Assembly: GCA_003159495.1 (NCBI GenBank)
Contig: PLPI01000054.1
Span: 8,409 to 72,408 of the forward strand
Direction: 5' to 3'
DNA: 64,000 nucleotides
Origin: a candidate division FCPU426 bacterium
Lineage (GTDB): Bacteria; Oederibacteriota; PGYV01; Palsa-1178
Both the position numbers and the translations under genes were made by a program. Below are positions 51 through 55,686 of the stretch, one piece after another. The notes beneath the pieces were generated by a model. The model made no database searches, was not told the DNA's origin, and was given only the letters and a program-made list of their open reading frames with translations. The stretch's first letter is position 1. Each line of letters begins with the position of its first letter.

Positions 51-89
51 ATTGTACTTTTTGGTTTTGCCTTTCAACTTTTACATTTT
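51..89 (+). repeat. Dispersed AT-rich intergenic repeat ('T motif', core TTTTTGGTTTTG); copy 1, preceded at 1-22 by an 'aaaaagtcccgcc' head also found at 23281
   Basis: attgtactttttggttttgcctttcaacttttacatttt. Near-identical cores at 13101, 17747, 20871, 23835 and, in reverse orientation, 55533, with a degenerate copy at 55654. Confidence 0.6.
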
Positions 90-165
90 CCGCTGTAATT
101 GTGAATTGATAATATGACCCGATATGCTATAATAATTGAAATATTTTTTTTGAAAGGCGGATAAT

Positions 166-795
166 TTGGATATATACGGTATTGCCGTTCAGATAGTTGT
201 GCTTGTATTTTCGGTCATAGTACATGAGGTGAGCCACGGGTTTGCGGCGTATAAACTCGGCGACCCGACGGCCAAAAGGGAGGGCAGGCTGACATTGAAT
301 CCGCTGCCCCATATTGACCCGTTTATGTCGATACTTATGCCCGTTTTTTTGATATTTACTCACGCGGGGTTCATAATCGGCGGGGCAAAACCCGTTCCCA
401 TTAATCCGCTTTATTTCAGCCATCACAGGCGCGATATAATGCTTACAAGCCTTGCCGGGCCGGGTTCGAACCTTCTGCTCGGGCTGGTTTGCGCGCTGCT
501 GCTTAAGGTAATCAGCGTGGTTCCGGCGGCGCAACTGCCGGCTGTTGAAATGCTTTTATCATACGGCCTTTTGATTAATGTCGGGCTGGCTGTTTTCAAT
601 CTTATACCTATACCGCCGCTTGACGGCAGCAAGGTGCTGGCTTTTTTCCTGCCCGCGCGCATGGAGGAGGCTTATTACCGTATAGAGCCGTTCGGCATAT
701 TTATAATCATGGCCCTTATGTTTACGGGGATGTTTAACTACATATTCCCGCCGATTTTTCATTTTGTTATGAACCTTTTCAGCATGCTTCAATGA
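166..795 (+). CDS. Peptidase M50 family (site-2 protease-like) integral membrane zinc metalloprotease
   Basis: HEVSHG (HExxH) inside a hydrophobic helix, polytopic 209-aa protein, LDGS motif near the C-terminus. Apparent TTG start. Confidence 0.7.
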   Translation: MDIYGIAVQIVVLVFSVIVHEVSHGFAAYKLGDPTAKREGRLTLNPLPHIDPFMSILMPVFLIFTHAGFIIGGAKPVPINPLYFSHHRRDIMLTSLAGPGSNLLLGLVCALLLKVISVVPAAQLPAVEMLLSYGLLINVGLAVFNLIPIPPLDGSKVLAFFLPARMEEAYYRIEPFGIFIIMALMFTGMFNYIFPPIFHFVMNLFSMLQ

Positions 796-814
796 AATAA
801 ACGGAGGATTTTTT

Positions 815-1792
815 ATGAAGACAGTTCTGTCGGGAATGAGGCCCACGGGAAAACTGCACCTGGGGCACCTTGAGGGAGTACTAAAAAGTTATATAGACAT
901 GCAGGATACATACAGGGCCTTTTATATGGTCGCGGACTGGCACGCCCTGACGACAAATTATGAATCACCGGAGATGACCGGCGATAACACCCTTGAAATG
1001 TTCAAGGACTGGCTCTCCGTCGGCATATCGCCTGATAAAGCCGTCATGTTCGTCCAGTCGGCGGTTTCGGAACACGCGGAACTTTTTCTTCTGCTTTCCA
1101 TGCTCACACCCGTGCCGTGGCTTGAGAGAAACCCGACATATAAGGAACAAAGGCAGGAACTTTCGGGAAAGGACCTTTCAACATTCGGATTTTTGGGTTA
1201 TCCCGTGCTGATGGCTGCGGACATACTGGTTTACAGGGCCGAAGTTGTGCCCATAGGCGAGGATCAGCGCCCGCATCTTGAGCTTGCCAGGGAAATGGTG
1301 CGCAGGTTTAACAACCTTTACGGCAATTTTTTTCCGGAACCGCAGGAGATACTCACAAAGTACCCCAAACTGCCCGGAATTGACGGCAGGAAAATGTCAA
1401 AGAGTTACAACAATGCCATATATCTCACGGATGACGAGAAAACCGTCAATGACAAGGCTTCAAAGATGTTCACCGACCCGGCAAAAATAAGAAAGAACGA
1501 CCCGGGCCATCCGGAAAACTGCGTTGTATGCGCCTTCCACAGGATATATAACGCCGCCGCATGCGAAACGGTCGAGGCGGAATGCAAAAGCGGCGCGCGC
1601 GGGTGTGTGGACTGCAAAAAACAGGTTGCGGTAAAAATAAACGAGAGGCTTGCCCCTATCAGGCTCAAACGCGCTGAAATAGACAAAGACCCGGGAATGA
1701 TAACCGGACTGATAGCCTCCGGCAATGCGAAGGCAAAAGCCGCGGCAGGCGAGACAATGAAGAACGTCAGGAAACTGATGAAACTGGCTTGA
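815..1792 (+). CDS. trpS: Tryptophan--tRNA ligase with a Cys-rich C-terminal segment
   Basis: Class I aaRS HIGH-type signature (RPTGKLHLGHL) and KMSKS. RBS GGAGG upstream. C-terminal C-x6-C-x2-C cluster. Confidence 0.9.
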   Translation: MKTVLSGMRPTGKLHLGHLEGVLKSYIDMQDTYRAFYMVADWHALTTNYESPEMTGDNTLEMFKDWLSVGISPDKAVMFVQSAVSEHAELFLLLSMLTPVPWLERNPTYKEQRQELSGKDLSTFGFLGYPVLMAADILVYRAEVVPIGEDQRPHLELAREMVRRFNNLYGNFFPEPQEILTKYPKLPGIDGRKMSKSYNNAIYLTDDEKTVNDKASKMFTDPAKIRKNDPGHPENCVVCAFHRIYNAAACETVEAECKSGARGCVDCKKQVAVKINERLAPIRLKRAEIDKDPGMITGLIASGNAKAKAAAGETMKNVRKLMKLA

Positions 1793-1819
1793 TAATAGCC
1801 GTAAAAAAACGGGAGCGAC

Positions 1820-2571: not shown

Positions 2572-3495
2572 ATGAGACAGGAAGAACTTGACAGGACTAT
2601 ACAGGCGCTGCTTTTTACCTCGGACAAGCCGTTATCCGGAGGCGTGATAGCCGGCGTTGTGGAAAAAAAGGAAAAGGAAGTGGCCGAGGCGGTGCAGCGC
2701 ATAAATTCCCACCTGCATGAGACGGGCTCGCCTGTTTCCATCAGGGAGATTGCAGGCGGCTATGAATTTTTGACGCTGCCGGAATACGCGCCGCACATCA
2801 AAAAGCTTTACAAGAACAGGTTCATGACGAGGCTCTCGAGGCCGTCGCTTGAAGTGCTTGCCATAATAGCGTACAAACAGCCCATAACAAAACAGGAAGT
2901 GGAATCCATCCGCGGGGTTAACTCCGACGGTGTTTACCACACGCTGCTCGAAAGAAAACTTGTGAAGATAGCCGGAAGAAAAGAGGCGCCTGGAAGGCCC
3001 CTTCTTTACGGCACCACAAAGGAATTTATGCAGTACCTGGGCATAAATTCAATGGACGACCTGCCGAAAATAGAAGAGATAAAATCAATACTTGAAAAAG
3101 ACGAGTTCACCGAAAGCTGGGAAGACAGGATAGAAGTGGCAAAAAACCAGGCACAGTTCCAGTTCGACCCGGAACAGGGCAAACAGACTCCGGGCGTAAA
3201 GGTTACATCGCTTGCCGAGGATTTATCGGCAATGGAAAAAGAAGATGCGGATTTAAAGGAAAAGTTTAAGGTTGAGAATGAGGAAAAAGAAAAAGAGAAT
3301 GGGGGCGATGACGTGGAAATTAAGGATGATGAAATAAAAGAGGATGATGAACTGAAAGGCGAAGGCGAAGACGGTGATGAAGACGAAGAAGACGAGGACG
3401 ATGACGATAAAGAAGATGAGGATGACGACGAAGACGAAGATGAGGACGATGACGATGAAGATGAAGATGAAGAGCAGGAGGATGAAAAGCAATGA
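2572..3495 (+). CDS. scpB: Segregation and condensation protein B with an ~120-aa poly-acidic C-terminal tail
   Basis: ScpB-like N-terminal tandem winged-helix region (IQALLFTSDKPLS...). The 3' third encodes almost pure D/E/K low complexity. Confidence 0.8.
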   Translation: MRQEELDRTIQALLFTSDKPLSGGVIAGVVEKKEKEVAEAVQRINSHLHETGSPVSIREIAGGYEFLTLPEYAPHIKKLYKNRFMTRLSRPSLEVLAIIAYKQPITKQEVESIRGVNSDGVYHTLLERKLVKIAGRKEAPGRPLLYGTTKEFMQYLGINSMDDLPKIEEIKSILEKDEFTESWEDRIEVAKNQAQFQFDPEQGKQTPGVKVTSLAEDLSAMEKEDADLKEKFKVENEEKEKENGGDDVEIKDDEIKEDDELKGEGEDGDEDEEDEDDDDKEDEDDDEDEDEDDDDEDEDEEQEDEKQ

Positions 3496-5351: not shown

Positions 5352-5384
5352 AGGAATGCCGGAAGAAAAATACGTTTCCGGTTT

Positions 5385-5497
5385 GTTCCCGGTATATGAC
5401 ATTTTTATTGGATTGCCGCCCGGTATAATATAGACGGCCCCTGCGGGGCCATCATATGAGCGGCGCAAGGCCAATAAAAATGTCATATACCGGGAAC
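5385..5497. repeat. 113-bp MITE-like element with perfect 27-bp terminal inverted repeats
   Basis: 5385-5411 gttcccggtatatgacatttttattgg is the exact reverse complement of 5471-5497. The interior carries the GC hairpin ggcccctgcggggcc and a catatgagcggcgcaagg block shared with repeats at 23331 and 23747. Confidence 0.6.
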
Positions 5498-5589
5498 CAT
5501 GTAACAATGTGCCGTTTTTAGACGGTACAAAAGAATGAGCGTCTGAAGAATTTGTTGGTTTTTAATTTCAAAAATATAAAGGAGAAAAC

Positions 5590-6615
5590 ATGGCAAGGTC
5601 CGACCTTTACAAAAAAGCCGGCGTTGATATTGACGCGGCAGCCGGGGCCCTCAAAAGGGCAAAAACTTTCATCAAATCCACGTTTAATAAGAATGTCGCG
5701 GTCGATATAGGAAGCTTCGGCGGCGTTTATAAGATATCAAAGGACAAGTTCCTCGTTGCGTCGACGGACGGTGTCGGGACAAAGCTTAAAGTTGCGCAGC
5801 AGCTGGGCATCCACACAACGGTCGGACAGGATATAGTCAACCACTGCACGAACGATATACTTGTAATGGGAGCCAGACCGCTATTTTTTCTCGATTATTT
5901 TGGAACGGGAAAACTTGAGGGTAAAATACTCGTTGACGTGATTAACGGCCTTTCGAAGGCTTGCAGGGAGAACGGCTGCGTTTTGATAGGCGGCGAGACA
6001 GCCGAAATGCCCGGGCTTTATAAAAAAGGGGATTATGACCTGGTGGGGACGATTATCGGGGAAATAAACAATTCACGGATTATAACCGGTGAAAAGGTAA
6101 AACACGGCGATATTATACTGGGGCTTGCGTCGGCCGGGCTGCACACAAACGGATTTTCGCTTGCAAGGAGCGTTTTTGAGGCGGCGAAAATTCCATATAC
6201 TAAAAAAATAAGGGAACTCGGCACGACTCTCGGAGCGGCGCTTTTAAAACCGCACCGCTCATACCTGAATTCGGTGTTCCCGGCCGTGGAAAAATATTTC
6301 GGCTTCATTCACGGCATGGCACACCTGACGGGCGGCGGCTTTTACGACAATATAAACAGGGTGCTGCCGGACAACTGCGACGCGGTATGCCTGCGCGGTA
6401 CATGGCCGGTACTTCCAGTATTTAACCTTATCCAGAAAACCGGCAGCGTGGGGTGGCAGGAGATGCACAGGGTCTTTAATATGGGCATCGGCCTCACAAT
6501 GATTGTTGATAAGACCATGGCAAAAGAGATAGCGGCATTTATCGCAAAAAAAGGGGAAAAGGTTTTTGAAATAGGCCAGGTCATAAAAGGCAGCGGCAAA
6601 GTCATAGTCGAATAG
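5590..6615 (+). CDS. purM: Phosphoribosylformylglycinamidine cyclo-ligase (AIR synthetase)
   Basis: PurM N-terminal motif (DAGVDIDA), GETAEMPG motif, 341 aa. Strong RBS AAGGAG. Confidence 0.9.
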   Translation: MARSDLYKKAGVDIDAAAGALKRAKTFIKSTFNKNVAVDIGSFGGVYKISKDKFLVASTDGVGTKLKVAQQLGIHTTVGQDIVNHCTNDILVMGARPLFFLDYFGTGKLEGKILVDVINGLSKACRENGCVLIGGETAEMPGLYKKGDYDLVGTIIGEINNSRIITGEKVKHGDIILGLASAGLHTNGFSLARSVFEAAKIPYTKKIRELGTTLGAALLKPHRSYLNSVFPAVEKYFGFIHGMAHLTGGGFYDNINRVLPDNCDAVCLRGTWPVLPVFNLIQKTGSVGWQEMHRVFNMGIGLTMIVDKTMAKEIAAFIAKKGEKVFEIGQVIKGSGKVIVE

Positions 6616-9545: not shown

Positions 9546-10232
9546 ATGAAAATACTTGAAATGAAAAACATAAAGAAAAGCTACCGTTCGCCCGAAGGCG
9601 GGACCAACGACGTCATCGACATAGCAGAATTCAGCGTTGATGAAGGGGCGCAGGCTGCAATTGCCGGCGAGAGCGGGTCGGGAAAGACAACTTTTTTAAA
9701 CCTTATCGCGGGTATATTGCGGGCCGATGAGGGGAGTATCAGCATAGCCGGAAGGGATATGGAAACACTTACCGAAGGCGAACGCGACCTTTTAAGGGCG
9801 TCAACTATCGGTTATATTTTTCAAACTTTTAACCTTCTCCAGGGATACACGGCCATTGAAAACGTAATGCTTGGCATGATGTTCGGCCCCGGCGCGGACC
9901 GCGCGGCGGCGGAATCCCTGCTTGAAAGGGTGGGGCTTGAAAAACATTTTAATTACCTGCCAAGGCAAATGTCCGTCGGGCAGCAGCAGCGCGTTGCCGT
10001 GGCAAGGGCCCTGGCGAACCACCCGAAACTTGTGCTGGCGGATGAACCCACGGGGCACCTCGACCACAGGCGGGCCATGGAATCCCTTAAATTAATCAAG
10101 GATATCTGCATGGAAAAAGGGGCGGCGTTACTGCTCGTCAGCCATGACCGCGACGTCCTTTCAAGTTTTAAATCCGTAAAGGACCTCTCATCAATTAACA
10201 GGGCTGAAAAGGAAGGGGTGCAAAATGTTTAA
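9546..10232 (+). CDS. ABC transporter ATP-binding protein (MacB/LolD/FtsE-like)
   Basis: Walker A GESGSGKTT, signature MSVGQQQRVAVARAL, Walker B LVLADEPTGHLD. Confidence 0.85.
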   Translation: MKILEMKNIKKSYRSPEGGTNDVIDIAEFSVDEGAQAAIAGESGSGKTTFLNLIAGILRADEGSISIAGRDMETLTEGERDLLRASTIGYIFQTFNLLQGYTAIENVMLGMMFGPGADRAAAESLLERVGLEKHFNYLPRQMSVGQQQRVAVARALANHPKLVLADEPTGHLDHRRAMESLKLIKDICMEKGAALLLVSHDRDVLSSFKSVKDLSSINRAEKEGVQNV

Positions 10233-11493
10233 AAAAATAAGCACACTTTTTTTTCTAATAAGCCACAGCATGAAACAGCACGCCCTTTCTACGGCCATAA
10301 CAATACTCTCCGTCGCAATGGCAACCGGCCTTACGATGGCGGTTTTTTCCATGCAATACCAGACACGTACGGCTTTTACCGGAGGGACGGCTGGATTTGA
10401 CGCTGTGCTTGGAGCCAGGGGAAGCCAGCTTCAGCTTGTGATGAACGCCGTCTACCAGCTGGAAACATCGCCGGGAAATATCCCATGGTCGCTGTATCAG
10501 GCGGTTAAAAACGACCCGCGCGTCAAGCTTGCGATACCTTACGCGGTGGGTGACAATTATTTCGGGTACAGGATAGTCGGCACCACGGATGATATTTTCA
10601 CAAAATTTGAATACCAGGCAGGCAAACATTTTACAGTCAGGCCGGGCGGGAAATATTTTGACCCTTCAAAGAGGGAAGCCGTCATAGGAAGTTATGTGGC
10701 GGATAAGACCGGATTAAAGGAAGGCTCGCAGTTCAAACCCTATCACGGCCTGTACTTTGACCCAAAAATGCAGCATGACGAGATTTTTACAATTACAGGA
10801 GTTATGGAGCCGACAAACACGCCCTCTGACAGGGTAATCTGGATACCCATAGACGATGTTTACAGGATGAAGGGGCATGTCCTGCGCGGCAGCGGGACCG
10901 AATATACCGCCACCGAAGGAAAAGAAATACCGGATGCCGTAAAGGAAGTAAGCGCTGTAATGCTGAAATTTTACAGCCCGCAGGCCGGGTTCATGCTTGA
11001 CCAGACGATAAACAAACAGGGCCGTGTGGCCACTCTTGCCTGGCCCATCGGAAGGGTCATGGCTGATTTCTTTGACAAACTCGGGTGGGTTTCAAAGATA
11101 CTCGCGCTTGTTGCCTATCTTGTAATGCTTGTGGCCGGCGCATCGATACTCGCCAGCCTGTATAATACGATGAACGAGCGCCGCAGGGAATTCGCCATAT
11201 TGCGCGCCCTGGGCGCAAAACGCTCGAATGTATTTTCCTCGATAGTACTTGAGGCGGCGGTTATCGCCGGAGCCGGGTCAATAGCGGGATATATTGTTTA
11301 TTTTATTGTTTTCGCCTTTGCCTCGCTTATCGTCAGGCAGCAGACGGGAGTTGTCCTTGATATTTTCCGCATGCATTTTTCAATGCTCGCGGTGCCTGTC
11401 GGAATGACGCTGCTCGGCGCGGCTTCGGGGCTGATACCGGCTTTAAAGGCTTATTCCACAGATGTGTCAAAAAATCTGGACCCGATGTCGTAA
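10225..11493 (+). CDS. ABC transporter permease, FtsX/MacB-like, with a large periplasmic domain
   Basis: N-terminal TM helix, ~250-aa extracytoplasmic domain, C-terminal three-TM FtsX-type module. Overlaps the ATPase gene stop. Confidence 0.8.
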   Translation: MFKKISTLFFLISHSMKQHALSTAITILSVAMATGLTMAVFSMQYQTRTAFTGGTAGFDAVLGARGSQLQLVMNAVYQLETSPGNIPWSLYQAVKNDPRVKLAIPYAVGDNYFGYRIVGTTDDIFTKFEYQAGKHFTVRPGGKYFDPSKREAVIGSYVADKTGLKEGSQFKPYHGLYFDPKMQHDEIFTITGVMEPTNTPSDRVIWIPIDDVYRMKGHVLRGSGTEYTATEGKEIPDAVKEVSAVMLKFYSPQAGFMLDQTINKQGRVATLAWPIGRVMADFFDKLGWVSKILALVAYLVMLVAGASILASLYNTMNERRREFAILRALGAKRSNVFSSIVLEAAVIAGAGSIAGYIVYFIVFAFASLIVRQQTGVVLDIFRMHFSMLAVPVGMTLLGAASGLIPALKAYSTDVSKNLDPMS

Positions 11494-11521
11494 GCACGGA
11501 AAAAATATACGGAGGAAAAAA

Positions 11522-11992
11522 ATGAGAAACAGGATAATATTATTAATGGCCGCCGGTTTATTTTTTACCGCGGCATGCGCGCTTTACGCGCACGAGCATA
11601 AGGCGCCGCATAACGGACTTCTCGTTGAGTGCGGCGATGAATACGCGCACCTGGAACTTCTGGCGGCGCCGGGGGCCGGAAGGATAACAGGATGGGTGCT
11701 TGACGGCGAGGCTGAAAATCCCGTGAGGTTGAAACAAAAAAACATCCTGTTGAGGCTCTTTATAGGCGGGAAAAAAGTAATGCTTGCCTTAAAAGCCGTG
11801 GCTAACCCTTTGACGGGCGAGGTTGCGGGCGACACTTCTGAATTCACAGCGGTTCTGCCCGTATTAAAAGGCGTTACGCAATTTTCAGGCGCAGTAACCA
11901 TGATAAATGTCGGCGGTGTGGTATTTAAAAATCTGGCCTTTAATTACCCGGGCACAGACGAACAGGCGGCTGCACAGGAGAAAAATAAATGA
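11522..11992 (+). CDS. Hypothetical secreted protein or lipoprotein
   Basis: Signal peptide with a possible lipobox Cys (FFTAACALYA), His-rich segment HEHKAPH, RBS GGAGG. Start placed at the internal ATG of the longer ORF. Confidence 0.5.
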   Translation: MRNRIILLMAAGLFFTAACALYAHEHKAPHNGLLVECGDEYAHLELLAAPGAGRITGWVLDGEAENPVRLKQKNILLRLFIGGKKVMLALKAVANPLTGEVAGDTSEFTAVLPVLKGVTQFSGAVTMINVGGVVFKNLAFNYPGTDEQAAAQEKNK

Positions 11993-12630
11993 AAAACGGT
12001 TTATGGCGCGGAATTGCCCTGACTGCGGCATTTTTTATGGTGGCGGTTGCAGGTTCCGCAATGGAAGTCCGCGTGGATGGAAAAAGCATCACGCCGGTAA
12101 AGGAAGCGCCGGCCGCTCCACAGGTAAAGGCGGATGACTACGCAAAGATTGAGGCAATGCCCAATCCGGTCACTGCGTATCCAATGGTTGACGGATATCC
12201 GCTGGTAACATGGGAAACACTGGCGGCATATCCGTATGATTCGCCCAGCATGGAGGACCAGCGTTCCGTAAAAATAAGGATGAAAAAGAAACAATTTGCG
12301 CTGCCTGATTTTATAAAGAACCTGAATGGGAAAAAAGCCGCGGTGACCGGGTTCCTGATTCCAATGGACACCGATGATACGGGGCAGTACGCAACCTCCA
12401 TAGTTATAGTGCGCAGCCAGATGACATGCTGTTTCGGTGTTATACCGAAACTTAACGAATGGGTCATGGTGACAATGCCGAAGGGTAAAAAAGTCAAGGT
12501 GGTCATGGACGTGCCGACGACTGTTTACGGAACCCTGGATGTAGGCGAAAAATATGAGGACATGAAGGGCTGGACCCTTTACAGGATGATAGCCGACAAA
12601 ACATCCACGCAGAAAAACACCCTGTGGTAA
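11989..12630 (+). CDS. Secreted hypothetical protein (DUF3299-like) associated with the FtsX-type ABC system
   Basis: Signal peptide, conserved MTCCFG-type motif, 213 aa. Family assignment is from memory only. Confidence 0.45.
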   Translation: MKNGLWRGIALTAAFFMVAVAGSAMEVRVDGKSITPVKEAPAAPQVKADDYAKIEAMPNPVTAYPMVDGYPLVTWETLAAYPYDSPSMEDQRSVKIRMKKKQFALPDFIKNLNGKKAAVTGFLIPMDTDDTGQYATSIVIVRSQMTCCFGVIPKLNEWVMVTMPKGKKVKVVMDVPTTVYGTLDVGEKYEDMKGWTLYRMIADKTSTQKNTLW

Positions 12631-12656
12631 ACCGGGGCAATCCGGACAAATAAATA

Positions 12657-12685
12657 TTGACAAACAGGTAAATGCCGGGTATAAT
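12657..12685 (+). promoter_or_regulatory. Consensus sigma70-type promoter upstream of the nifU-like gene
   Basis: TTGACA (12657-12662), 17-nt spacer, TATAAT (12680-12685). Confidence 0.5.
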
Positions 12686-12792
12686 ATCACCAAGATAGTG
12701 ATATACAAGAAGTTTGGTGTTTACACCGCCTTAAATTTTGTTAAAGTATTTAAAGCGCGGCGGCGGCTCGCAAACTTAACAGGAGGCATAAG

Positions 12793-13020
12793 ATGCTTAA
12801 GGAAAAAGTGCAGAAAGTTATCGATGATTTAAGGCAGTATCTCCAGGCTGACGGCGGGGATATAGATCTGGTGGATGTCGATGAAACAAAGGGCGAAGTA
12901 AAAGTAAAACTCAAAGGGGCCTGCTCAGGATGCCCGATGGCACAAATAACCCTTACACAGGGGGTAGAGGCCAGGATAAAGGAAGAACTGCCTGAAATTA
13001 AGAGTGTTGTGGCGGTTTGA
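12793..13020 (+). CDS. NifU-like (Nfu-type) Fe-S cluster assembly domain protein
   Basis: 75-aa protein with GACSGCP (CxxC) motif typical of the NifU C-terminal/Nfu domain. Confidence 0.8.
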   Translation: MLKEKVQKVIDDLRQYLQADGGDIDLVDVDETKGEVKVKLKGACSGCPMAQITLTQGVEARIKEELPEIKSVVAV

Positions 13021-13067
13021 TGGAAAATTAAAAAGGTAAAATCTGAAACCAAAAAGAAATAAAAAAA

Positions 13068-13094
13068 GGCGGCGTTTTTACACCGCCTTTTTTT
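13068..13094. terminator. Intrinsic terminator between convergent genes
   Basis: ggcggcg-tttttaca-ccgcc hairpin followed by a T-run. An A-run precedes it, so it can serve both strands. Confidence 0.5.
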
Positions 13095-13100
13095 ATTTTA

Positions 13101-13134
13101 AATGTTCTTTTTGGTTTTGAGTTTTACATTTTAA
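13101..13134 (+). repeat. T-motif repeat copy 2
   Basis: aatgttctttttggttttgagttttacattttaa. Confidence 0.55.
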
Positions 13135-13141
13135 TCCCCTG

Positions 13142-14077
13142 TTATTTATCGGCGTACAGTTCGGGGTGTTCCATGAGAAAATGAACATGTGCCCTGATCT
13201 GTCTTGTCGAATCAAAAGAAAGGCCGAAATCCTTTTTAATCCTGTTTACGTTGAACATGAACGGGCTGTCGCTCCAGCCGAGGTTTTTCAGCCTTATTTT
13301 TGAACTTTTCGGAGATATCCCGTTTTTTCCGGCGTATTCCACGGCCCATATCGCGGCCTGTTCCCAGGTTGTAAAATTTTTCGCGAGGCCGTAGTAAACA
13401 TTGTTTGTCACACTGCTTTTAAGAAGCGCCGAATAAACTTTTGCAAGGTCGCCCGCCCAGATAAACTGCGTGCCGTCATTTTTAACGAGGTCTATCTGCG
13501 AGCCGGCACGGGCATTCGCACAGATATTAAAAAACCTTTTGTCGTTTTCCATCGAGCCTCCGTGCACCACCGGGTCGCCGAAAGTATACCCGGGCCTTAT
13601 GGTATTGAACTTTATCTTCTTGAAATAATTCGAATATGCCGAGATAAATAATTCAACAGAACCCTTGGTGGCGCCGTAAAAGTCGTTTGGTTTTGGCTTT
13701 TCCGTTTCGTCAATTGTGCGCGGCAGGCTGCCCTGCGCGGCTGTGGAAGAAGTGAAGATAAATTTTTTCGCCCCTTTTTTTACCGCTATCTCTATTAATG
13801 AAACAGATGACAGAGTCTCGTTTTTTATCATTTCCGGGCCGGTATCGCCCCAGCACAAGGCTATATGCACAACCGCATCGGGTTTGACAATGGCTTTTTC
13901 AACCGCTTTGAGATCCTCCATTGGTGCGCATACAATCTTTACGCCGGGAAGCATTGAAAGCGCCGGGACTTTTTCCGGTTTCCGCGCGAGAACTACAACC
14001 TCATGCCCCTCGTTGCTCAGCTGTTTTACAACATATGAACCTATAAAGCCGGTACCGCCGGTCACATATATACGCAT
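13142..14077 (-). CDS. NAD-dependent epimerase/dehydratase family protein (extended SDR)
   Basis: N-terminal Rossmann motif MRIYVTGGTGFIGS, 311 aa. Confidence 0.8.
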   Translation of the reverse strand: MRIYVTGGTGFIGSYVVKQLSNEGHEVVVLARKPEKVPALSMLPGVKIVCAPMEDLKAVEKAIVKPDAVVHIALCWGDTGPEMIKNETLSSVSLIEIAVKKGAKKFIFTSSTAAQGSLPRTIDETEKPKPNDFYGATKGSVELFISAYSNYFKKIKFNTIRPGYTFGDPVVHGGSMENDKRFFNICANARAGSQIDLVKNDGTQFIWAGDLAKVYSALLKSSVTNNVYYGLAKNFTTWEQAAIWAVEYAGKNGISPKSSKIRLKNLGWSDSPFMFNVNRIKKDFGLSFDSTRQIRAHVHFLMEHPELYADK

Positions 14078-14214
14078 TAAGAACCTCCTGATGTTTTTAA
14101 AATTATAACATAATAAACTTAAAAAAAATATTTGACATTTATTTAATAGATAATATAATTATCACATATAGGGGCGCGTTTTAAACCAGCTGAAAATTAA
14201 TGGAGGGGATAAGT

Positions 14215-15855
14215 ATGTCCGTATGCAGGCCGAAAATTTTCCTATTTTTATTATTTTTAGTTTCTGTTATTTTTTGTATCCAGGCGCGTGGAACAAGTTT
14301 TGACGTCGGAATTTACGGTGGCGGAAATAATGCCGCAATGATGGATTACAACAGCAGGATAGACAGCCTCAACAGTTTTAACTCAGCAAATGGGGCGCAG
14401 GCCACGCTTAAAAAATTCACCTATGAACCGGGAACATCGTTGATATTAAGCGGTGAGTTTGAAACAACCGCCGGCAGGTACGCAGTATATCTGAAAAACG
14501 ACTGGCTTATTATCGAAGAGAGGGGCAACAACGCAAAATGGGAGAATGGACTTACAGCGCAGTCGCTTAACGGCGACTATTCTGTTTTATATTCCGCCGC
14601 GGGCGCCAGATATTATTACAGCCCTGAGGGGATGCCGTTTATAGAGTTTTATATAAACGCCGACGCCGGGGTATGCGGTTATTTCTCCAATTATGCTTCC
14701 GAGTCCACATTCAAGTCCGACGGAACGCCTATCAATGATGAAAGAAAAGAATGGAAGACGGCCATTCCGGCGGCCAGCGCGGGCGCGGGAGGCAGATGGT
14801 GGTTGGGCAACGGCTTCGGGATTGGACTTGAAGCTGGCTACAGGCTGGCATCCGGCAAGGTCATGGTATCGGTGACAAATACCAACGGCGATGCCGCTTC
14901 CCAGGGAGAAGATGTTGTAAACTATTCCGGACCTTTTGTCAACGCGGGCGTCATATACAGGTTCGGCGGGGATACACGGGACAAAAAAAGCGGCCCCGTT
15001 ACCGACACGGTGGATCCGCAGTATCTTGAGATAACGGCCAAACTTTATTCCGACGCGCAGAAATATTATGAAGAAGGGCTGTTTAATCAGGCGGCGGAAA
15101 AAAATTCCGAGGCCATGAAACTTTCGCCGGATGACGGCCGGGTTATTGAACAGGCAAAGGCTATAAAAGCCGCCTCGGAAAAAAATGGCGGCGGTGAAAA
15201 TGTTGACAGATTAAAGGAAGAGGCGGAAAACTTAAGGAGATTGAAAAATTATCCGGGCGCCCGTTTGAAATACCTTGAGATAAGGGCGATAGAACCTGAA
15301 AATGGTTATGCGGTTTTTTATCTGAAGAATTTCGACGATAAGGCGTCGCAGTTCCTAAAAAAAGCCAGGGAATATCTCGCGGCAGATAACGCGGAAAAAG
15401 CCCTTGACGCCGCGGCAAAAGCGGTTGAATACGCGCCGGATGACGCGCAGGCGGCGGCGCTATACGCCTCTATAGCGCGGGACGGAATGATGAAAAAAAA
15501 GGCCGACAGGATATTCAACCGGGCGGTGGATTCATTCAGCAGGGGAGAATACGAAATTGCGGCGGGGTTATGGAAGGAAGTGCTTAATATAAACCCTTCT
15601 GATGAAGAGGCTAAAAAGAATATGGATAAGGCGGCTGAAAAAGCGGGCGAAAACCTCGAGGAAAAATCCATGGAGGCGCAAAAAGCGCACGAAGAGGCGG
15701 TGGCTCTGTACAAAATAGGAAACATGGACTCGGCGGCGGCCAAATGCGAGTTTGTACTGCGCCTCGACCCGGATGACCTTGACAGCAAAAAAATGCTGGA
15801 GGATATAAAGAAAATAAGAAAGGAAAACAACAAAGAGGCAATAATAAAAAGGTAA
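14215..15855 (+). CDS. Secreted protein with an N-terminal beta-rich (barrel-like) domain and C-terminal TPR-like repeats
   Basis: Signal peptide MSVCRPKIFLFLLFLVSVIF, Gly/aromatic-rich alternating N-terminal half, helical repeat C-terminal half. RBS GGAGGGG 6 nt upstream. A sigma70-like promoter (TTGACA ... TATAAT) sits at about 14133-14160. Confidence 0.55.
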   Translation: MSVCRPKIFLFLLFLVSVIFCIQARGTSFDVGIYGGGNNAAMMDYNSRIDSLNSFNSANGAQATLKKFTYEPGTSLILSGEFETTAGRYAVYLKNDWLIIEERGNNAKWENGLTAQSLNGDYSVLYSAAGARYYYSPEGMPFIEFYINADAGVCGYFSNYASESTFKSDGTPINDERKEWKTAIPAASAGAGGRWWLGNGFGIGLEAGYRLASGKVMVSVTNTNGDAASQGEDVVNYSGPFVNAGVIYRFGGDTRDKKSGPVTDTVDPQYLEITAKLYSDAQKYYEEGLFNQAAEKNSEAMKLSPDDGRVIEQAKAIKAASEKNGGGENVDRLKEEAENLRRLKNYPGARLKYLEIRAIEPENGYAVFYLKNFDDKASQFLKKAREYLAADNAEKALDAAAKAVEYAPDDAQAAALYASIARDGMMKKKADRIFNRAVDSFSRGEYEIAAGLWKEVLNINPSDEEAKKNMDKAAEKAGENLEEKSMEAQKAHEEAVALYKIGNMDSAAAKCEFVLRLDPDDLDSKKMLEDIKKIRKENNKEAIIKR

Positions 15856-15933
15856 GAGGATGCAATGTATTGTCCTTGATTTTGCCACGGGAAAATATTA
15901 CAATTATATCCACAAAAAAATCAGGGAGGCAAT

Positions 15934-16434
15934 ATGAAAAAGGCATCTTTAATTGTTGTTATGGTTCTTGCGGTTTTCAGTACGGGCTTATTTGCTTATG
16001 TCAGGGTTGCCGGACATGATTTAAGTTCGGAAGGTTATTATCTCGCGGATAGAGGGCTGGGCGTCGGTATTGTGGTAGGCTCGGGAGCGGAATTGAGCAT
16101 TAAGGACTGGGTCAGCCGTGAAAACGCACTGCAGTTTGATCTGGGATGGGATTTAACCAGCTCTAATTTTGGGATAGGGGCGGCTTATCTTATCCATAAT
16201 TTTAAGATTATTGAAGCCAGTGACATGAAAATTCCGCTTTATTTCGGAATCAAGGGTTGGGCAAATGTAGGCTCCGATTTGCTGGCCGGTATCCAGGTTC
16301 CGCTTGGAATTGACTGGATATTCAAGACCGCCCCGATAGACATTTTTCTTCAGATAGAACCGGGAATTGAAGTGATACCGCATACAATATTTGCGGGGAA
16401 CGCCGGGCTTGGGGTAAGATACTGGTTCAGATAA
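15934..16434 (+). CDS. Small outer-membrane beta-barrel-like protein
   Basis: Signal peptide, 166 aa, alternating amphipathic strands, aromatic-rich C-terminus (VRYWFR). Confidence 0.5.
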   Translation: MKKASLIVVMVLAVFSTGLFAYVRVAGHDLSSEGYYLADRGLGVGIVVGSGAELSIKDWVSRENALQFDLGWDLTSSNFGIGAAYLIHNFKIIEASDMKIPLYFGIKGWANVGSDLLAGIQVPLGIDWIFKTAPIDIFLQIEPGIEVIPHTIFAGNAGLGVRYWFR

Positions 16435-16453
16435 TAATTGAAAATAAAAAAAA

Positions 16454-16482
16454 GCCGGGGCTTAAAACCCCGGCTTTTTTTT
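16454..16482. terminator. Bidirectional intrinsic terminator
   Basis: A-run, gccgggg-cttaaaa-ccccggc hairpin, T8. Sits between convergent genes. Confidence 0.7.
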
Positions 16483-16483
16483 A

Positions 16484-17626
16484 TTACCAGAGTTTGTCGG
16501 CGCCGGTTTTTAAAAGTTTTCTGAGCATGAAGAGCGGTTTTATGTTTGCCGGCACTGCCGGGTATTTAAAGGCGAGCTTTATGAATTTAAACGGGTTTTT
16601 ATATGTATTGTCCCTTGAGTCAAAATATTCCCCCAGAAAATTAAGGACGCTTTCAGGCAGGGTAAAACAGCGCGACGCCAGGTATTTGAGCTCCTTTGAG
16701 GCAAAGGGCTGTTTTTTAATGACCTTCTCGTAAATTGCGGGAGATTCTTTTTTGCCCAGCCTGACTTCGCCGAAGATGCAGTAGGCGCATATTTTGCCTG
16801 AGAGCAGGGCTGAATGAATGCCCGCCAGAGTCACCGGGTTTACCAGCCCGGCGGCGTCGCCGACAAGAAATACGTTGTCGTTGAATATTTTATCTTTTAT
16901 TCCGCCTGATGGAATTGCACCGCGGCAGAAGCCAATATGGCCGGATTCCTCCACACCCAGGTGTTTTTTTATAAAACCCCTTAAAAGCTCCTTATCCGCG
17001 ACACAGCCGCCGGCGTTTATCTCTTTTGATTTGTCAAACAGCCACATATAATAACCTGATATGTGATCATAAAAAAAATCAATATATGCGCCTGAATCAT
17101 ATCTGTACGCCGGTTTGGGAAGCTTGTACTGGACCGCGTCCGCGAGTTTTCTGCGGTTGTTGAAAAACAGGGCGTCAATAATTGATTTCGGGCCGTCCGC
17201 TCCGACAAGGTATTTGCAGGTAAAGCTTCCGCTATTTGTAAAGACCTCGAATCCGGTTTCCGTCTTTTTTGCCGAAACAACAGTGTGCCTTAAAAAAGGC
17301 TTTGCCCCCGCGCCGACGGCGAGGTCAAAAACATGCCTGTCAAATTTCTCCCTGTTTATAAGGCATCCCGGCGATTTTACGGCGAAATATTTTCCGTTTG
17401 GAAAAAATATCCTGAATCCCTCTATTTTTTTGTCTATATACGAGCCGTGGAACAAACCGGCGGCTTTTAAGGAAGCCTCGCTCACAGCCTCGCCGCAGCA
17501 TACCGGAAAACCCGGGGCCCTGCGTCTCTCAAAAACGGCGCAGGAAATATTATTTTTAGCCAGCGTGTGGGCGGTTACGGACCCGGCCGGCCCGGCACCA
17601 ACAATAATGACGTCAAAGTGTTCCAT
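16484..17626 (-). CDS. FAD-dependent oxidoreductase, geranylgeranyl reductase family
   Basis: DVIIVGAGPAGS FAD-binding fingerprint and GDAAGLVNP motif. Start placed at MEHFDV; the longer ORF has no RBS support. Confidence 0.75.
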   Translation of the reverse strand: MEHFDVIIVGAGPAGSVTAHTLAKNNISCAVFERRRAPGFPVCCGEAVSEASLKAAGLFHGSYIDKKIEGFRIFFPNGKYFAVKSPGCLINREKFDRHVFDLAVGAGAKPFLRHTVVSAKKTETGFEVFTNSGSFTCKYLVGADGPKSIIDALFFNNRRKLADAVQYKLPKPAYRYDSGAYIDFFYDHISGYYMWLFDKSKEINAGGCVADKELLRGFIKKHLGVEESGHIGFCRGAIPSGGIKDKIFNDNVFLVGDAAGLVNPVTLAGIHSALLSGKICAYCIFGEVRLGKKESPAIYEKVIKKQPFASKELKYLASRCFTLPESVLNFLGEYFDSRDNTYKNPFKFIKLAFKYPAVPANIKPLFMLRKLLKTGADKLW

Positions 17627-17746
17627 TAAAAACTCCTTAAATTCAAAAGTTAAAATGCAAAACCAATAATTACAACTGTAAAAGTTGACAAGTGAAACAG
17701 GGCAAAGCCGCCCTGCTCCAATATTTTTATTACTTTGAAATTTAAT

Positions 17747-17787
17747 AGTTGCACTTTTTGGTTTTGACTTTTGACTTTTAACTTTTC
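17747..17787 (+). repeat. T-motif repeat copy 3, in a divergent promoter region
   Basis: agttgcactttttggttttgacttttgacttttaacttttcc. Confidence 0.55.
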
Positions 17788-17886
17788 CAACTAATTCCCT
17801 TGAAAAAACAAACAACTGTCATATAATATCATACATCACGGCAAAAAACCACGCCGCTGTTTGCGGGGAACGAGGATAAAACAGCC

Positions 17887-20105: not shown

Positions 20106-20843
20106 TTGAGGCATGAAATACTGGAACTTTTAAAGGACAAAAAAGCGCTGAAGGAAAAAGGGTTGTTCATAGTTGACACTGAAAAGATACTGGGCGAGGC
20201 CGTCGGGGCCGGGTTTGAAATCGCGCATCTTTTATATACCGAACACGCCCTGCCGGTCGTTGACAAATATATGGACAGGTTAAATGACGGGATTTATGAG
20301 ACGACAAAGGCAAGTTTTGTGGACAGGTTCGCAAATGTGAAAACCCACCAGGGGTTTATAGCCGTTGTGCGCAGCGTTAACAGGGAAATAAAGGGTTTTT
20401 CAGGCATAAACGCCATGGTCCTGCTTGATACGCTGCAGGACCCGGCAAATGTCGGGGCCATTATAAGAAGCGGCGCGGCATTCGGTTTTAATAATTTTCT
20501 GCTCAAAGACAGCGCGAATATTTACGGCGACAAGGCGATACGCGCTTCCGCCGGAGCGGCATTCAGGGTGAATTACAAAAACGTGGAATTGAACGAACTT
20601 GAGGGTTTAAGGACTGATTTTACATTCGTGGCAGCCGACGTTAAAAACGGGATAGACCTGAGGCGCGCAAAGGGTGCCATTAAGGGCAAATATATAATCA
20701 CACTCGGGAGCGAAGGGCAGGGGATATCCGAAGAAGTGAAAAAACTTTGCGATCTGAAGATAAATATTAATTATTCAGGGACCGTGGAATCGCTTAACGT
20801 GGCCGCCGCCGCAGCGATAATTTTTTACGAGATGGCAGTTTAA
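20106..20843 (+). CDS. TrmH/SpoU family RNA 2'-O-methyltransferase
   Basis: SpoU methylase motifs (DPANVGAIIRSGAAFG; C-terminal LNV(A)AAA knot motif). Apparent TTG start. Confidence 0.8.
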   Translation: MRHEILELLKDKKALKEKGLFIVDTEKILGEAVGAGFEIAHLLYTEHALPVVDKYMDRLNDGIYETTKASFVDRFANVKTHQGFIAVVRSVNREIKGFSGINAMVLLDTLQDPANVGAIIRSGAAFGFNNFLLKDSANIYGDKAIRASAGAAFRVNYKNVELNELEGLRTDFTFVAADVKNGIDLRRAKGAIKGKYIITLGSEGQGISEEVKKLCDLKININYSGTVESLNVAAAAAIIFYEMAV

Positions 20844-20870
20844 AATTAAATTTAAAGGGCAAAATCAAAA

Positions 20871-20909
20871 AGTTATAATTTTTGGTTTTGAATTTTAACT
20901 TTATAATTT
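20871..20909 (+). repeat. T-motif repeat copy 4, with an adjacent partial inverted copy (caaaatcaaaaag) on its 5' side
   Basis: agttataatttttggttttgaattttaactttataattt. Confidence 0.55.
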
Positions 20910-20920
20910 AAATAAAAAAA

Positions 20921-20944
20921 GCCCCCGAAAGGGGGCTTTTTTTA
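20921..20944. terminator. Bidirectional intrinsic terminator
   Basis: A-run, gccccc-gaaa-gggggc hairpin, T-run. Between convergent genes. Confidence 0.7.
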
Positions 20945-20951
20945 TTGTATG

Positions 20952-23404: not shown

Positions 23405-23526
23405 TATTTATCCGGAACATTAGGCCGCGTAAAATGCGTCTAATATATCAAAGAGGAGTGAAGGTGCAGACTTTTATTTAAGCGGTATAACGGGTAAAAT
23501 GAAAGGAAAGGAAGGTGTGAAAATTA

Positions 23527-23708: not shown

Positions 23709-23746
23709 CGGGACACGCCGTTGGCTTGCCGTGTTTTTGTTTTCGT

Positions 23747-32730: not shown

Positions 32731-32827
32731 AAGAGGCACTGTCGGATCAGGTATTGTGGCAGGGATTTTCCTACAGTACCAAAAGAAGCGGCAAGAGCAA
32801 TAAATTTTATAAATGAGGTGCCATGGA

Positions 32828-46601: not shown

Positions 46602-46672
46602 GCAAAGTTGGTACTGCCGGATCAGGTAATGTTAGCGGGGTTTTCCGCCAGTGCCAAAGTTAATCCGGGTGG

Positions 46673-53422: not shown

Positions 53423-53493
53423 AAGCAGCGGAATCGATTTTAAGGCGGTTTAAAATTTTGAAATAATATTCATTTTTATTTACGGAGGGAATT

Positions 53494-53883
53494 GTGGCAA
53501 AAGCTGAGGGGAAGAGTTATAAGTTCGACGGCGAGTCAAAAATAGATACGACAGTACTTGAAACCATAGGTTATGACGGCGAAGAACAGTCCATTGAATA
53601 TACAACAAATGAATTTTCCTCGGTGTGCCCCTTTTCCGGACTTCCCGATTTTGCTAAAGTAACAATAAAGTATATTCCTGCCGGAAAAATAGTCGAACTA
53701 AAATCCCTGAAATATTATTTTATTTCATTCCGCAATGTCGGCATCTACCAGGAAAAAGCGACCGACCGGATATTCAAGGATATTTACTCCCTTCTGAAAC
53801 CAAAATATATGATGGCGGAAACAATTTACAATACCCGCGGCGGGATTGACTCGAAATGTTTTATTGAAAAGGGAAAGAAATAA
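53494..53883 (+). CDS. queF: NADPH-dependent 7-cyano-7-deazaguanine (preQ0) reductase
   Basis: Type I QueF motif E(F/Y)xSxCP (TNEFSSVCPFSGLPDF), T-fold, 129 aa. GTG start with RBS GGAGGG. Confidence 0.85.
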   Translation: MAKAEGKSYKFDGESKIDTTVLETIGYDGEEQSIEYTTNEFSSVCPFSGLPDFAKVTIKYIPAGKIVELKSLKYYFISFRNVGIYQEKATDRIFKDIYSLLKPKYMMAETIYNTRGGIDSKCFIEKGKK

Positions 53884-53947
53884 GGCAAACTGCAGTTAAA
53901 AGCGGAAAGATTATCCTGCCGGAATTAAATAAATAAGAGGGACTCAT

Positions 53948-55528
53948 ATGAAAAAAACATTAATAGCCTTATTATTGCCCCTATTATTCCTCTCCTGTGT
54001 GAAAAATGAACCTTCCACGGAACAAAAGCTTTCGTCGGAAAACAGGCAGGCGGTTCTATCCGGGCTCACCGATATGTGGCGCAAAAACGACGCGGTAAAC
54101 ATGGCCTCCGCGGCGGTTCTGCTTGATAAAAAAGATACAGGTGAGCAGGCGGCGTTCGCGCTTTCAAACATTTCCGCTCCGGCCGTAAATAATATTGTGC
54201 TTTCCGGCATGAATGACGGGAAAGACAACGACGCCAGGCTGCTTTATTATTGCCTGTCATTTAAAACACATCCCGTGGACGATTTTATTGTTTCACGCTC
54301 GGCCGCGCATTACGGGAAATATAAAGGGGAAGCGCTAACTGCGATTAATCTCATCGCCGGCGGGCAGGATACGGCGCTGAAGGCGGCGGCCTCGTTTGAA
54401 AAGAAAAAGATATTTTTAAATCCGGCGCTTTCACGGGAATTTATACTCAGGATAGGCGAACAAAGATATCCGCGCCTTTATGATTTTCTCTCTTCCGTTT
54501 ATCTCACCCACAGGGAACTGCGCCCTTTTGCCGCATGGGCAATGCACAGGATAAAAAAATCCGGCCGGATAAAATACGACTTTAAAGACAGGGTGATTGT
54601 AAAAAACGGTTATTTCAGCAAAGATTCCAATAATCCGGTTATTCCTACGTCGGCCGGGACGTACAAAGCGTGGCATACCGCGAACCCCGACATACTTGTT
54701 AAAGACGACGAACTGTACTTTTACTACAGGACCGGTAACGGGACGGACAGGATATCGCTGATGACGGTGCCTTTACAAATATTTAACGGGACAAATATGC
54801 TGGATTATCCGAATAATCCGATAATAGGGACGTCGCAGAAGGGTTTTGACAGCAGGGGGGTGCTCGACCCGTCGGCAGTCGTTTTTAACGGTAAAATATT
54901 TCTTTATTACAGCGGGCTCGGCGACGGCGAGGACTCGGTAGGGCTGGCGGTTTCAAAGGACGGGAATAATTTCACAAAATATGAAAAAAACCCGGTTTTA
55001 ACCGGAAGGGCCCCGGATGTCATCATTAAAGACGGGATACTTTACATGTATTATGTGGTGGTTAACGAGGCAGAAGGTTATTCAATATACCTTGCTACAT
55101 CAAGCGATGGTTATAATTTTATTCCTTTCGGGACATCGCCGGTATTCGCGCCGGACGATACGCCGGGGGCGTGGGACGGTAAAAGCGTGACAACTCCCAG
55201 GATAACTGAAAAGGACGGCGTCTATTACATGCTATATTGCGGGGATGACAAATACAGGGATTATCCGCCGTTTTTCGGGCTGGCATTCTCATATGACATG
55301 ATACACTGGTACAGGTCGACGCAGAACCCGGTATTTTCCAGGGGAAAGAAAAACGATTTTGACGACGGCGCCATATGGTTCGGCGACCTTTTCCCGTATA
55401 ACAACAAATGGTACCTGTATTATGAAGGCTGGGGCGGCGGCGCGAGCCACGGTTCCGAATACGGAGCCGGAGGCCACTCGCAGATAGGGATGGCTACCGG
55501 GGAATTTGATATAGCGCAGATGCTTTAA
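53948..55528 (+). CDS. Lipoprotein with N-terminal helical repeats and a C-terminal five-bladed beta-propeller glycosidase-like domain (GH43/GH130-like)
   Basis: Lipobox LLFLSC. C-terminal half has repeated D-P/G-x-hydrophobic-x-x-x-G-x-hydrophobic-Y-hydrophobic-Y-Y blocks typical of furanosidase-superfamily propellers. Confidence 0.45.
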   Translation: MKKTLIALLLPLLFLSCVKNEPSTEQKLSSENRQAVLSGLTDMWRKNDAVNMASAAVLLDKKDTGEQAAFALSNISAPAVNNIVLSGMNDGKDNDARLLYYCLSFKTHPVDDFIVSRSAAHYGKYKGEALTAINLIAGGQDTALKAAASFEKKKIFLNPALSREFILRIGEQRYPRLYDFLSSVYLTHRELRPFAAWAMHRIKKSGRIKYDFKDRVIVKNGYFSKDSNNPVIPTSAGTYKAWHTANPDILVKDDELYFYYRTGNGTDRISLMTVPLQIFNGTNMLDYPNNPIIGTSQKGFDSRGVLDPSAVVFNGKIFLYYSGLGDGEDSVGLAVSKDGNNFTKYEKNPVLTGRAPDVIIKDGILYMYYVVVNEAEGYSIYLATSSDGYNFIPFGTSPVFAPDDTPGAWDGKSVTTPRITEKDGVYYMLYCGDDKYRDYPPFFGLAFSYDMIHWYRSTQNPVFSRGKKNDFDDGAIWFGDLFPYNNKWYLYYEGWGGGASHGSEYGAGGHSQIGMATGEFDIAQML

Positions 55529-55532
55529 TAAT

Positions 55533-55686
55533 TTAAAATTTAAAAGGCAAAACCAAGAATTGCAATTTAACCCCATATAATTAATAAATTTATGTTGTTA
55601 TTTTTGTTGATTTTTAAGCGTCTCACCCGGTTTTGAACGGCAGAAAACAGCCGCTCTACTTTTTGGTTTATAATTTTAATTTTTGC
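55533..55686. repeat. Inverted pair of T-motif copies (55533-55570 reverse; 55654-55686 forward) bracketing about 85 bp, a MITE-like arrangement
   Basis: The reverse complement of 55533-55570 is aattgcaattcttggttttgccttttaaattttaaat; 55654-55686 is ctctactttttggtttataattttaatttttg. Confidence 0.45.

Follow-up and report, generated by a model that had tools for sequence, protein, structure and literature searches.

The window analysed here is a stretch of 64,000 nucleotides from a candidate division FCPU426 bacterium (assembly GCA_003159495.1, contig PLPI01000054.1, positions 8,409 to 72,408 of the forward strand). Between its genes lies a dispersed repeat whose unit is a T-rich motif of 44 nt, called an arm in the following. 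The original prediction had listed seven T-rich copies, and all seven were found within a few bases of where it had placed them. The core exceeds its chance frequency, as that prediction required: the 12-mer TTTTTGGTTTTG, allowing up to one mismatch, occurred 8 times in the window against 1.47 expected, none of 100 shuffles reached 8, and every one of these matches fell within an arm. A 45-column profile built from the alignment of the window copies was used to search for arms, and eight strong ones were detected (E 2e-9 to 2e-5). The full number is 10 arms at six intergenic sites (Table 1); the seven listed copies had left out three minus-strand partners, the left arms of pairs 1 to 3. Divergent inverted pairs are present at four of the six sites (13.1, 17.7, 20.9 and 55.6 kb). 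A density of about one copy per 9 kb had been given, but the spread is uneven: five sites fall within the first 24 kb, and the stretch from 24 to 55 kb has none. No tRNA or tmRNA gene was found in the window and no Rfam family reached its gathering score there; a permissive Rfam search of the window gave sub-threshold matches to generic terminator hairpins only.

Table 1. Arms and associated hairpins in the 64-kb window. L numbers denote related loci.
Feature	Position	Strand	Evidence	Context
Solo arm, tandem junction	47-88	+	profile E = 1.9e-9; model positions 1-42	about 20 nt upstream of the TTGATA-N16-TATAAT promoter of an M50-peptidase gene; no partner arm in the upstream DNA (L243), which holds other repeats and a canonical terminator
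Weak left arm, pair 1	13025-13066	-	inverted-repeat pairs I7, I9, I17; profile E = 1.4	T-rich end 4 nt from the NifU-like stop codon (13020); orthologous arm L101 4635+
Canonical G+C-rich bidirectional terminator hairpin between the pair 1 arms	13057-13098	.	terminator scan	fold -44.9 and -47.6 kcal/mol, z = -8 and -9
Right arm, pair 1	13097-13138	+	profile E = 1.8e-6	ends 3 nt from the stop codon of an epimerase gene (13142-14077, minus strand); orthologous arm L101 4572-
Left arm, pair 2 (divergent junction)	17639-17680	-	profile E = 1.3e-8	start codon of the FAD-oxidoreductase gene 12 nt beyond, Shine-Dalgarno directly after the arm; orthologous arm L229 1308-
Short central hairpin (CAGGGC...GCCCTG) in the pair 2 spacer (63 nt)	17698-17715	.	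fold, sequence reading	absent in the orthologous L229 pair (spacer 6 nt)
Right arm, pair 2	17744-17785	+	profile E = 4.6e-9	14 nt upstream of the TTGAAA-N16-TATAAT promoter (17800-17827) of a 738-aa gene; orthologous arm L229 1315+
Left arm, pair 3 (convergent junction)	20841-20882	-	profile E = 2.2e-5	overlaps the right arm at a common TTATAA centre; SpoU-methylase stop codon (20843) within the arm; orthologue L229 4454-
Right arm, pair 3	20868-20909	+	profile E = 7e-6	orthologues L229 5407+, L173 10615-
Canonical G+C-rich bidirectional terminator, just outside pair 3	20911-20946	.	terminator scan, fold	directly after the right arm
Solo arm	23832-23873	+	profile E = 2.6e-9	downstream of a small open reading frame (23499-23708) and a repeat D6 copy; mraZ promoter (24055-24083) about 180 nt on
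Left arm, pair 4 (convergent junction)	55529-55570	-	profile E = 5.2e-9	begins one base past the glycoside-hydrolase stop codon (55528)
Degenerate right arm, pair 4	55649-55690	+	profile E = 2.1, marginal alone; repeat family D3	position and orientation as expected for a partner arm from the other pairs; followed by a hairpin (55692-55716) and the SDR gene stop codon (55718)

The core of an arm spans model positions -1 to 42 and reads TTwaAr TTGTAM TTnTTGG TTTTGMM TTTTRAM TTTTDAM TTT. Many of its positions are invariant, its outer edge is sharp past position 42, and a weaker T/A pattern reaches about 20 nt inward. The T-blocks recur in a register of 7.0 nt (spectral power 2.36, versus 0.03 at 10.5 nt). 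Because this register is out of phase with the DNA helix, no summed bend results, and the bend vectors added up to 0.73 of 5; in phased-tract curved DNA the tracts recur with the helix, every 10-11 bp. The T-rich arm is not self-complementary, and a single arm folds weakly (median -2.4 kcal/mol). The gene at 5590 has, shortly before its Shine-Dalgarno sequence, a stretch (AATTTGTTGGTTTTTAATTTC; window 5545-5590; profile E = 11) that looks, from its sequence, like a shortened and decayed arm.

The arrangement of the arms is strict. All 26 of the 26 adjacent arms examined were ordered minus then plus, which gives an A-rich arm, a spacer and a T-rich arm on either strand and is the only order that places U-tracts 3' of a hairpin on both strands. 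The whole element is an imperfect palindrome of about 110-190 bp, non-coding and with stop codons in all frames. Apart from the window pair at 20.8 kb, whose arms overlap, spacers measure 6-228 nt, mostly 42-63 nt; their sequences are unrelated among copies, and a short central hairpin is often present. Of nine pairs folded, seven were predicted to form long hairpins (z = -5.6 to -11). For the inner hairpin the median is -12.5 kcal/mol, and in 30 of 48 folds it closes directly beside a UUnUUGGUUUUG tract. An intrinsic terminator is a stable hairpin with a U-tract straight behind it, downstream of a gene; the arm-pair stems are A·U-rich, large and branched, and too poor in G+C for the terminator scan. 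Sorting the arms into GTAC and GTAA subtypes as left and right ends gave no significant result.

Further copies were sought in one genome per species, with a search pattern and then with the full 45-column profile. The pattern covers positions 6-29 and partly fixed them; positions 30-42 and the partner arms are free of it. Among the matches listed, most were single chance matches (Prochlorococcus, Bacteroidota and others), and the loci with the full profile came, with one exception, from three Spirochaetia metagenome-assembled genomes (MAGs; CAZMGF01, CAYUDX01 and JAJFUW01). The exception, an isolated match of lower score (23 bits) in a Bacteroidetes MAG (L059), was treated as chance or mis-binning. 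A metagenome scan gave at least 47 loci with at least 86 full copies; with the window included, the non-redundant set holds at least 81 arms from the Spirochaetia MAGs and related metagenome contigs. The one match among viral contigs was a chance fit to the search pattern. One of the spirochaete loci, L101, and window 9657-16573 are syntenic (65-72% nucleotide identity), and the window organism is therefore a relative. The carrier loci have a GC content of 42-52%. Six sites were counted in the 64 kb of the window and eight further sites in 336 kb of other loci. At the sampled density of roughly one site per 10-40 kb, a genome of typical size would carry something like a hundred sites or more.

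This distribution bears on the suggestion in the original prediction that the motif is a DNA uptake sequence for natural transformation, of the kind (DUS/USS) whose inverted pairs double as terminators. DUS/USS within terminators are likewise oriented motifs with T-rich flanks and inverted pairs downstream of genes, and the arms are also equally frequent in both orientations and conserved among related species. However, DUS/USS occur about once per kb and are much shorter than the 44-nt arm. The arms are far sparser, and their core 12-mer was found solely within full 44-nt arms, with no enrichment outside them and never in the coding sequence that makes up about 90% of the DNA. Moreover, which way an arm points goes with the gene next to it and with its partner arm. 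A role in DNA uptake is thus very improbable.

Gene contexts were obtained with a codon-usage gene finder, which agrees with public gene calls. In 506 kb of related loci, 90% of it coding, 77 of 78 arms overlapped a predicted gene by 15 nt or less, and the intergenic restriction noticed earlier in the window therefore holds among relatives. Of 72 classifiable arms, 41 point into a gene 3' end, and for 34 of them the distance to the stop codon is between -15 and +8 nt. Roughly half of these 41 provide the stop codon themselves, as one of the TAA triplets that the heptads offer in all three frames. For gaps of at least 60 nt, arms occupied 12 of 19 convergent, 27 of 113 tandem and 5 of 26 divergent junctions, a significant excess at convergent junctions (12/19 versus 32/139 for the others; odds ratio 5.7, p = 6e-4). 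In the carrier genomes few 3' ends have a canonical G+C-rich terminator, 16% of those with arms and 12% of those without.

The remaining 31 arms face a gene 5' end. Twelve of them stop 10-35 nt short of the start codon, and the Shine-Dalgarno sequence follows them immediately; most such arms lie at tandem junctions or after a tRNA gene, which fits a read-through intercistronic RNA. Another 14 lie 36-160 nt from the start, and in 12 of the 14 a sigma-70 promoter (at least 9 of 12 matches) stands between arm and gene. The same holds for the three window copies that had been assigned to promoter regions: their position is right, but the real sigma-70 promoters are outside the arms, between arm and gene.

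Could each arm itself be an outward promoter, TTGTAM-N17-TAACTT, starting transcription at the arm edge? The 12 arms that adjoin a Shine-Dalgarno sequence leave no space for another promoter, and the FAD-oxidoreductase gene (17626) has nothing but the element upstream. The weaker T/A pattern upstream of the core is at the position of an UP element, and Correia and Neisseria REP2 repeats are known to carry promoters (PMC3184786). Nevertheless, the arm hexamers match only 6-7 of 12 consensus positions. The A at -11 is present in 73% of arms and is replaced by C in the arm preceding the FAD-oxidoreductase gene of L229. The hexamers are also the same in the 3'-facing and the 5'-facing arms, the more distant arms mostly have a real promoter of their own outside, and the most conserved part of the arm would become the promoter spacer. 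We consider this explanation improbable.

The arms are kept at orthologous sites in other species, a form of conservation that the original prediction had proposed to look for. The window pairs at 13.1, 17.7 and 20.9 kb have arms at orthologous positions in L101 and in L229/L173, and spacer length differs between orthologous pairs (63 nt in the window versus 6 nt in L229 at 17.7 kb). Ten orthologous arm pairs showed 92% identity at high-information and 46% at low-information positions, with coding flanks at 75-79%. For random non-orthologous arm pairs the values were 93% and 45%. Since orthologous arms are only as similar as random ones, the variable positions have been randomised since the species split, while the consensus has been held at each site. 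This retention points to purifying selection as judged from the aligned arms; continual homogenisation is less likely. Beside the arms, similar conservation was seen only in the -35, -10 and Shine-Dalgarno boxes. No covariation was detected between the two arms of a pair (154 matches versus 160 expected).

Conservation of single arms without covariation, even at a divergent junction, would suit double-stranded DNA sites at transcription-unit edges, bound without bending by a chromosomal protein that is abundant in the cell, for instance a nucleoid-associated protein, gyrase or an insulator. High information over 44 bp suggests several contacts, and dyad-symmetric pairs of about 150 bp at gene 3' ends recall the binding of gyrase and IHF at bacterial interspersed mosaic elements (BIMEs; PMC3184786). 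The original prediction went further in this direction and preferred sites for a nucleoid-associated protein on bent AT-rich DNA, whose bending the T-tract spacing contradicts, as tracts every 7.0 nt rather than 10.5 nt make the bends cancel. Independent binding sites, bent or not, would not need the minus/plus order found in every adjacent pair. Furthermore, nucleoid-protein sites are usually short and degenerate, unlike the long near-invariant run of an arm. Binding of the arms by some protein is likely; as the whole explanation, chromosomal double-stranded DNA sites seem doubtful to us.

The inverted ends could also belong to a purely selfish non-autonomous element, a MITE (a miniature transposable element with inverted repeats) or REPIN-like unit without host function, whose arms would serve as terminal inverted repeats for a transposase encoded elsewhere in the genome. 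The 44-nt inverted ends with a sharp outer boundary fit such an element, as do its small, non-coding body and the open reading frames that run into the arms and take arm TAA triplets as stops. The same genomes contain another repeat, apparently a true MITE, that has terminal inverted repeats and duplicates 8 bp at its target site. At an orthologous junction between a protein gene and a tRNA gene, L193 (about 1000-1180) has an arm pair and a G+C-rich hairpin, and L233 (about 1655-1700) has about 50 nt without arms. Gain or loss of an arm pair thus appears to occur, and this was the one case of presence versus absence, arms being found in both genomes in five other orthologous site comparisons.

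Gene content also changes exactly at arms. In L229 (4443-5401), an extra gene of 205 aa with its own arms and without a Pfam match stands exactly at the centre of the window's fused pair (20841-20909), which reflects either a deletion in the window lineage or a cassette-like insertion in L229. In L217 (1-1500), one side matches L060 and the other L149, each at 100% identity, and the join falls in a 34-nt arm stretch common to both; either the sequence recombined at the repeat or the assembly is chimeric. In L146 (1955-2541), divergent arms 586 nt apart surround a 124-aa gene for a '23S rRNA intervening sequence protein' (PF05635, E = 1e-20), which is another insertion at a pair centre.

On the other side, no target-site duplication, as a direct repeat at the outer edges, was found for 25 pairs. 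The spacers are unrelated among copies and vary from overlapping arms or 6 nt up to 228 nt, whereas the co-resident MITE is 81-89% identical over its whole length. No autonomous copy was present in about 0.5 Mb of carrier loci. REPINs go with a cognate RAYT (Y1 transposase) gene that the repeats flank; no transposase was found among the genes checked in the window and nearby loci, the carrier genomes being sampled as fragments. Old unselected insertions would not, moreover, hold the consensus at orthologous sites while their variable positions were randomised. We therefore regard a purely selfish element as unlikely.

Architecture and placement put the arm pairs in a class with the repetitive extragenic palindromic (REP)/BIME, SPRITE, enterobacterial repetitive intergenic consensus (ERIC) and Correia repeats. 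The motif is, in our view, one arm of a lineage-specific, non-coding, imperfectly palindromic dispersed intergenic repeat of this kind, and this assignment is much firmer than any statement on function. The comparison with REP/BIME elements made in the original prediction holds in these respects. Like the arms, REP/BIME units in Enterobacteriaceae and Pseudomonas, including REPIN doublets, are extragenic, occur in many copies and usually as inverted pairs with variable linkers, favour gene 3' ends and convergent junctions, and keep their positions among relatives. They are co-transcribed, as the arm element would be. The REP unit is a G+C-rich imperfect palindrome with 5' GTAG. It folds on itself within 20-40 nt, in contrast to the weakly folding arm with its 7-nt T-tract units, and no sequence similarity between the arm and the REP consensus was evident, in a comparison made without alignment. 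The centres of both are targeted by other small insertions; work cited in a 2011 review concerns insertion sequence elements that enter REPs comparably (PMC3184786).

The SPRITE repeat resembles a terminator and is found preferentially where 3' ends converge (PMC3184786). It comes from another phylum, and in this comparison, made without sequence alignment, the arm pair differs in its long A·U-rich hairpin, in the G+C-rich terminators often beside it and in the individual conservation of its arms. REP, ERIC and Correia repeats are co-transcribed and affect mRNA stability, and promoters, terminators, IHF sites and RNase processing sites have been reported for ERIC and for the Correia elements of Neisseria (CREE/NEMIS) (PMC3184786). 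Like the arm element, Correia and ERIC elements lie between genes and form imperfect palindromes, 100-160 bp in length, whose inverted ends are long. Their interiors are conserved and TA is duplicated at their target sites, whereas the arm element showed no duplication and has unrelated interiors. Terminal inverted repeats on a small non-coding unit are shared with MITEs, and among the repeats studied here a target-site duplication (8 bp) was seen for the co-resident MITE, not for the arm pairs.

Other known motifs fitted less well. The integron attC site was rejected: read by eye, the arm order GTTAAAA ... TTTTAAC is reversed relative to RYYYAAC ... GTTRRRY, and the flanks are housekeeping genes on both strands, where attC sites stand in cassette arrays beside intI. 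No acceptable match to the arm was seen by eye for the consensuses of sigma-54, sigma-28, ECF, SigH, the Bacteroidetes -33/-7 promoter, IHF (WATCARNNNNTTR) or EbfC (GTnAC). To the NusG-type pause motif, TTNTTT, the arm bears a loose resemblance only. A literature search on the core sequence and on spirochaete intergenic repeats returned nothing specific. The arm family thus appears to match no Rfam family, paper or viral copy that we found, and its non-palindromic heptad arms and the retention of its consensus at orthologous sites make it unusual.

As to function, we tentatively favour the reading that the element, once transcribed, terminates or attenuates transcription in both directions and also forms a barrier at 3' ends. 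It would be transcribed as a 3' untranslated region or, within operons, as intercistronic RNA. The proximal A-rich arm would then pair with the distal U-rich arm while the latter emerges, giving a long A·U hairpin followed by successive U-tracts, the same in both directions. Such a structure could stop or attenuate transcription from either side and hold off 3'-exonucleases at the boundaries of transcription units. The fixed arm order, the bias to convergent junctions and 3' ends, the geometry of hairpin plus U-tracts and the filling of gaps from stop codon to Shine-Dalgarno sequence all fit this reading.

Several observations weigh against this terminator and barrier function, which we infer from anatomy alone. 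Two of the nine folded pairs were no better than shuffled sequence, namely window pair 4 with its degenerate arm (z = -0.17) and a pair in L192 (z = -1.6). The invariant G17, G18 and G23 are not explained by a role as U-tract, and solo arms exist. The lack of covariation indicates that selection keeps the sequence of each arm and not arm-arm pairing. The pair at the divergent junction, where there is nothing to terminate, is conserved between species (window 17.7 kb versus L229). Canonical G+C-rich terminators stand within or next to three window pairs, among them pair 1 (within) and pair 3 (next to it), and they are equally frequent whether or not arms are present, so the element is not simply a substitute terminator. 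With only eight further sites in 336 kb outside the window, it is also too sparse for a general terminator. In addition, the copies were ascertained through a search pattern and the gene contexts come from a home-made gene finder.

The arm-by-arm conservation, the missing covariation, the invariant Gs and the 7-nt register suggest that each arm is probably also read sequence-specifically by a factor, possibly multimeric, in this register. A bolder form of the idea, which we hold to be rather unlikely, is that a multimeric nucleic-acid-binding factor, specific to this lineage, recognises the arms by reading about six 7-nt T/U-tract units. The elements would then be factor-dependent bidirectional terminators or insulators at transcription-unit boundaries, maintained by purifying selection and not decaying mobile elements.

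For proteobacteria and firmicutes there are good descriptions of dispersed intergenic repeats, for spirochaete chromosomes hardly any; the 2011 review states that none were reported for Borrelia chromosomes (PMC3184786). The arm profile offers a compact aid in the annotation of intergenic DNA from a group of uncultured Spirochaetia, and can help to explain why contigs break there. A repeat whose consensus is demonstrably held in place across species argues for a role at the level of the host, and the 7-nt register yields a concrete prediction about the binding factor. If the elements do mark boundaries, they would help to predict where operons end in genomes with few canonical terminators (at 12-16% of 3' ends).

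Other repeats share the intergenic space with the arms. A second, unrelated palindromic repeat of about 140 bp lies at window 5367-5504 (arms 5385-5420 and 5462-5497). Copies 81-89% identical over the full length occur on spirochaete contigs at L130 11513-11652, three times in L132, and in L140, L166, L220 and L231. The L130 copy is inserted in the spacer of an arm pair, has the ends TACTGTCGGAAAATCC and is flanked by the 8-bp target-site duplication CAACTTGG; this repeat is the one that looks like a true MITE. Two intergenic copies of 49 nt (window 32735-32783 and 46610-46658), 78% identical and of the form GGCACTGTCGGATCAGG...GGGATTTTCCTACAGTACC, have ends resembling the inverted ends of this MITE and may be remnants that consist of its ends only.

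A long-range inverted repeat, GCCGTSCRGGCGGAACTTTTTTA ... TAAAAAAGTCCCGCCYGMACGGC, with arms about 72 nt apart, was found at window 23152-23192 and 23265-23305. It recurs at window 1-25 together with L243 9690-9860, at L132 980-1133 and in a spacer of L210, and one copy spans the annotated 5' end of a sigma-factor open reading frame (22422-23219). A third family of palindromic repeats, or else a structured leader, could account for it. A direct repeat of 78 nt, 87% identical (window 23327-23404 and 23743-23820), contains a GGGGCCGGC...GCCGGCCC hairpin and flanks the small open reading frame at 23499-23708; a similar copy lies upstream of the window start, at about 9604-9680 of L243.

Three coding features of the window also deserve mention. 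A single open reading frame of 980 aa (28442-31384) contains two complete Mur-ligase modules, its halves sharing 72-78% DNA identity in places, and is apparently a MurE-MurF-type fusion. A STAS-domain gene (24653-24994) is unusually placed, as it separates mraZ from rsmH where the division and cell-wall gene cluster begins. The ScpB gene ends in an acidic Asp/Glu tail, encoded by a GAA/GAC-rich imperfect tandem repeat at 3350-3493.

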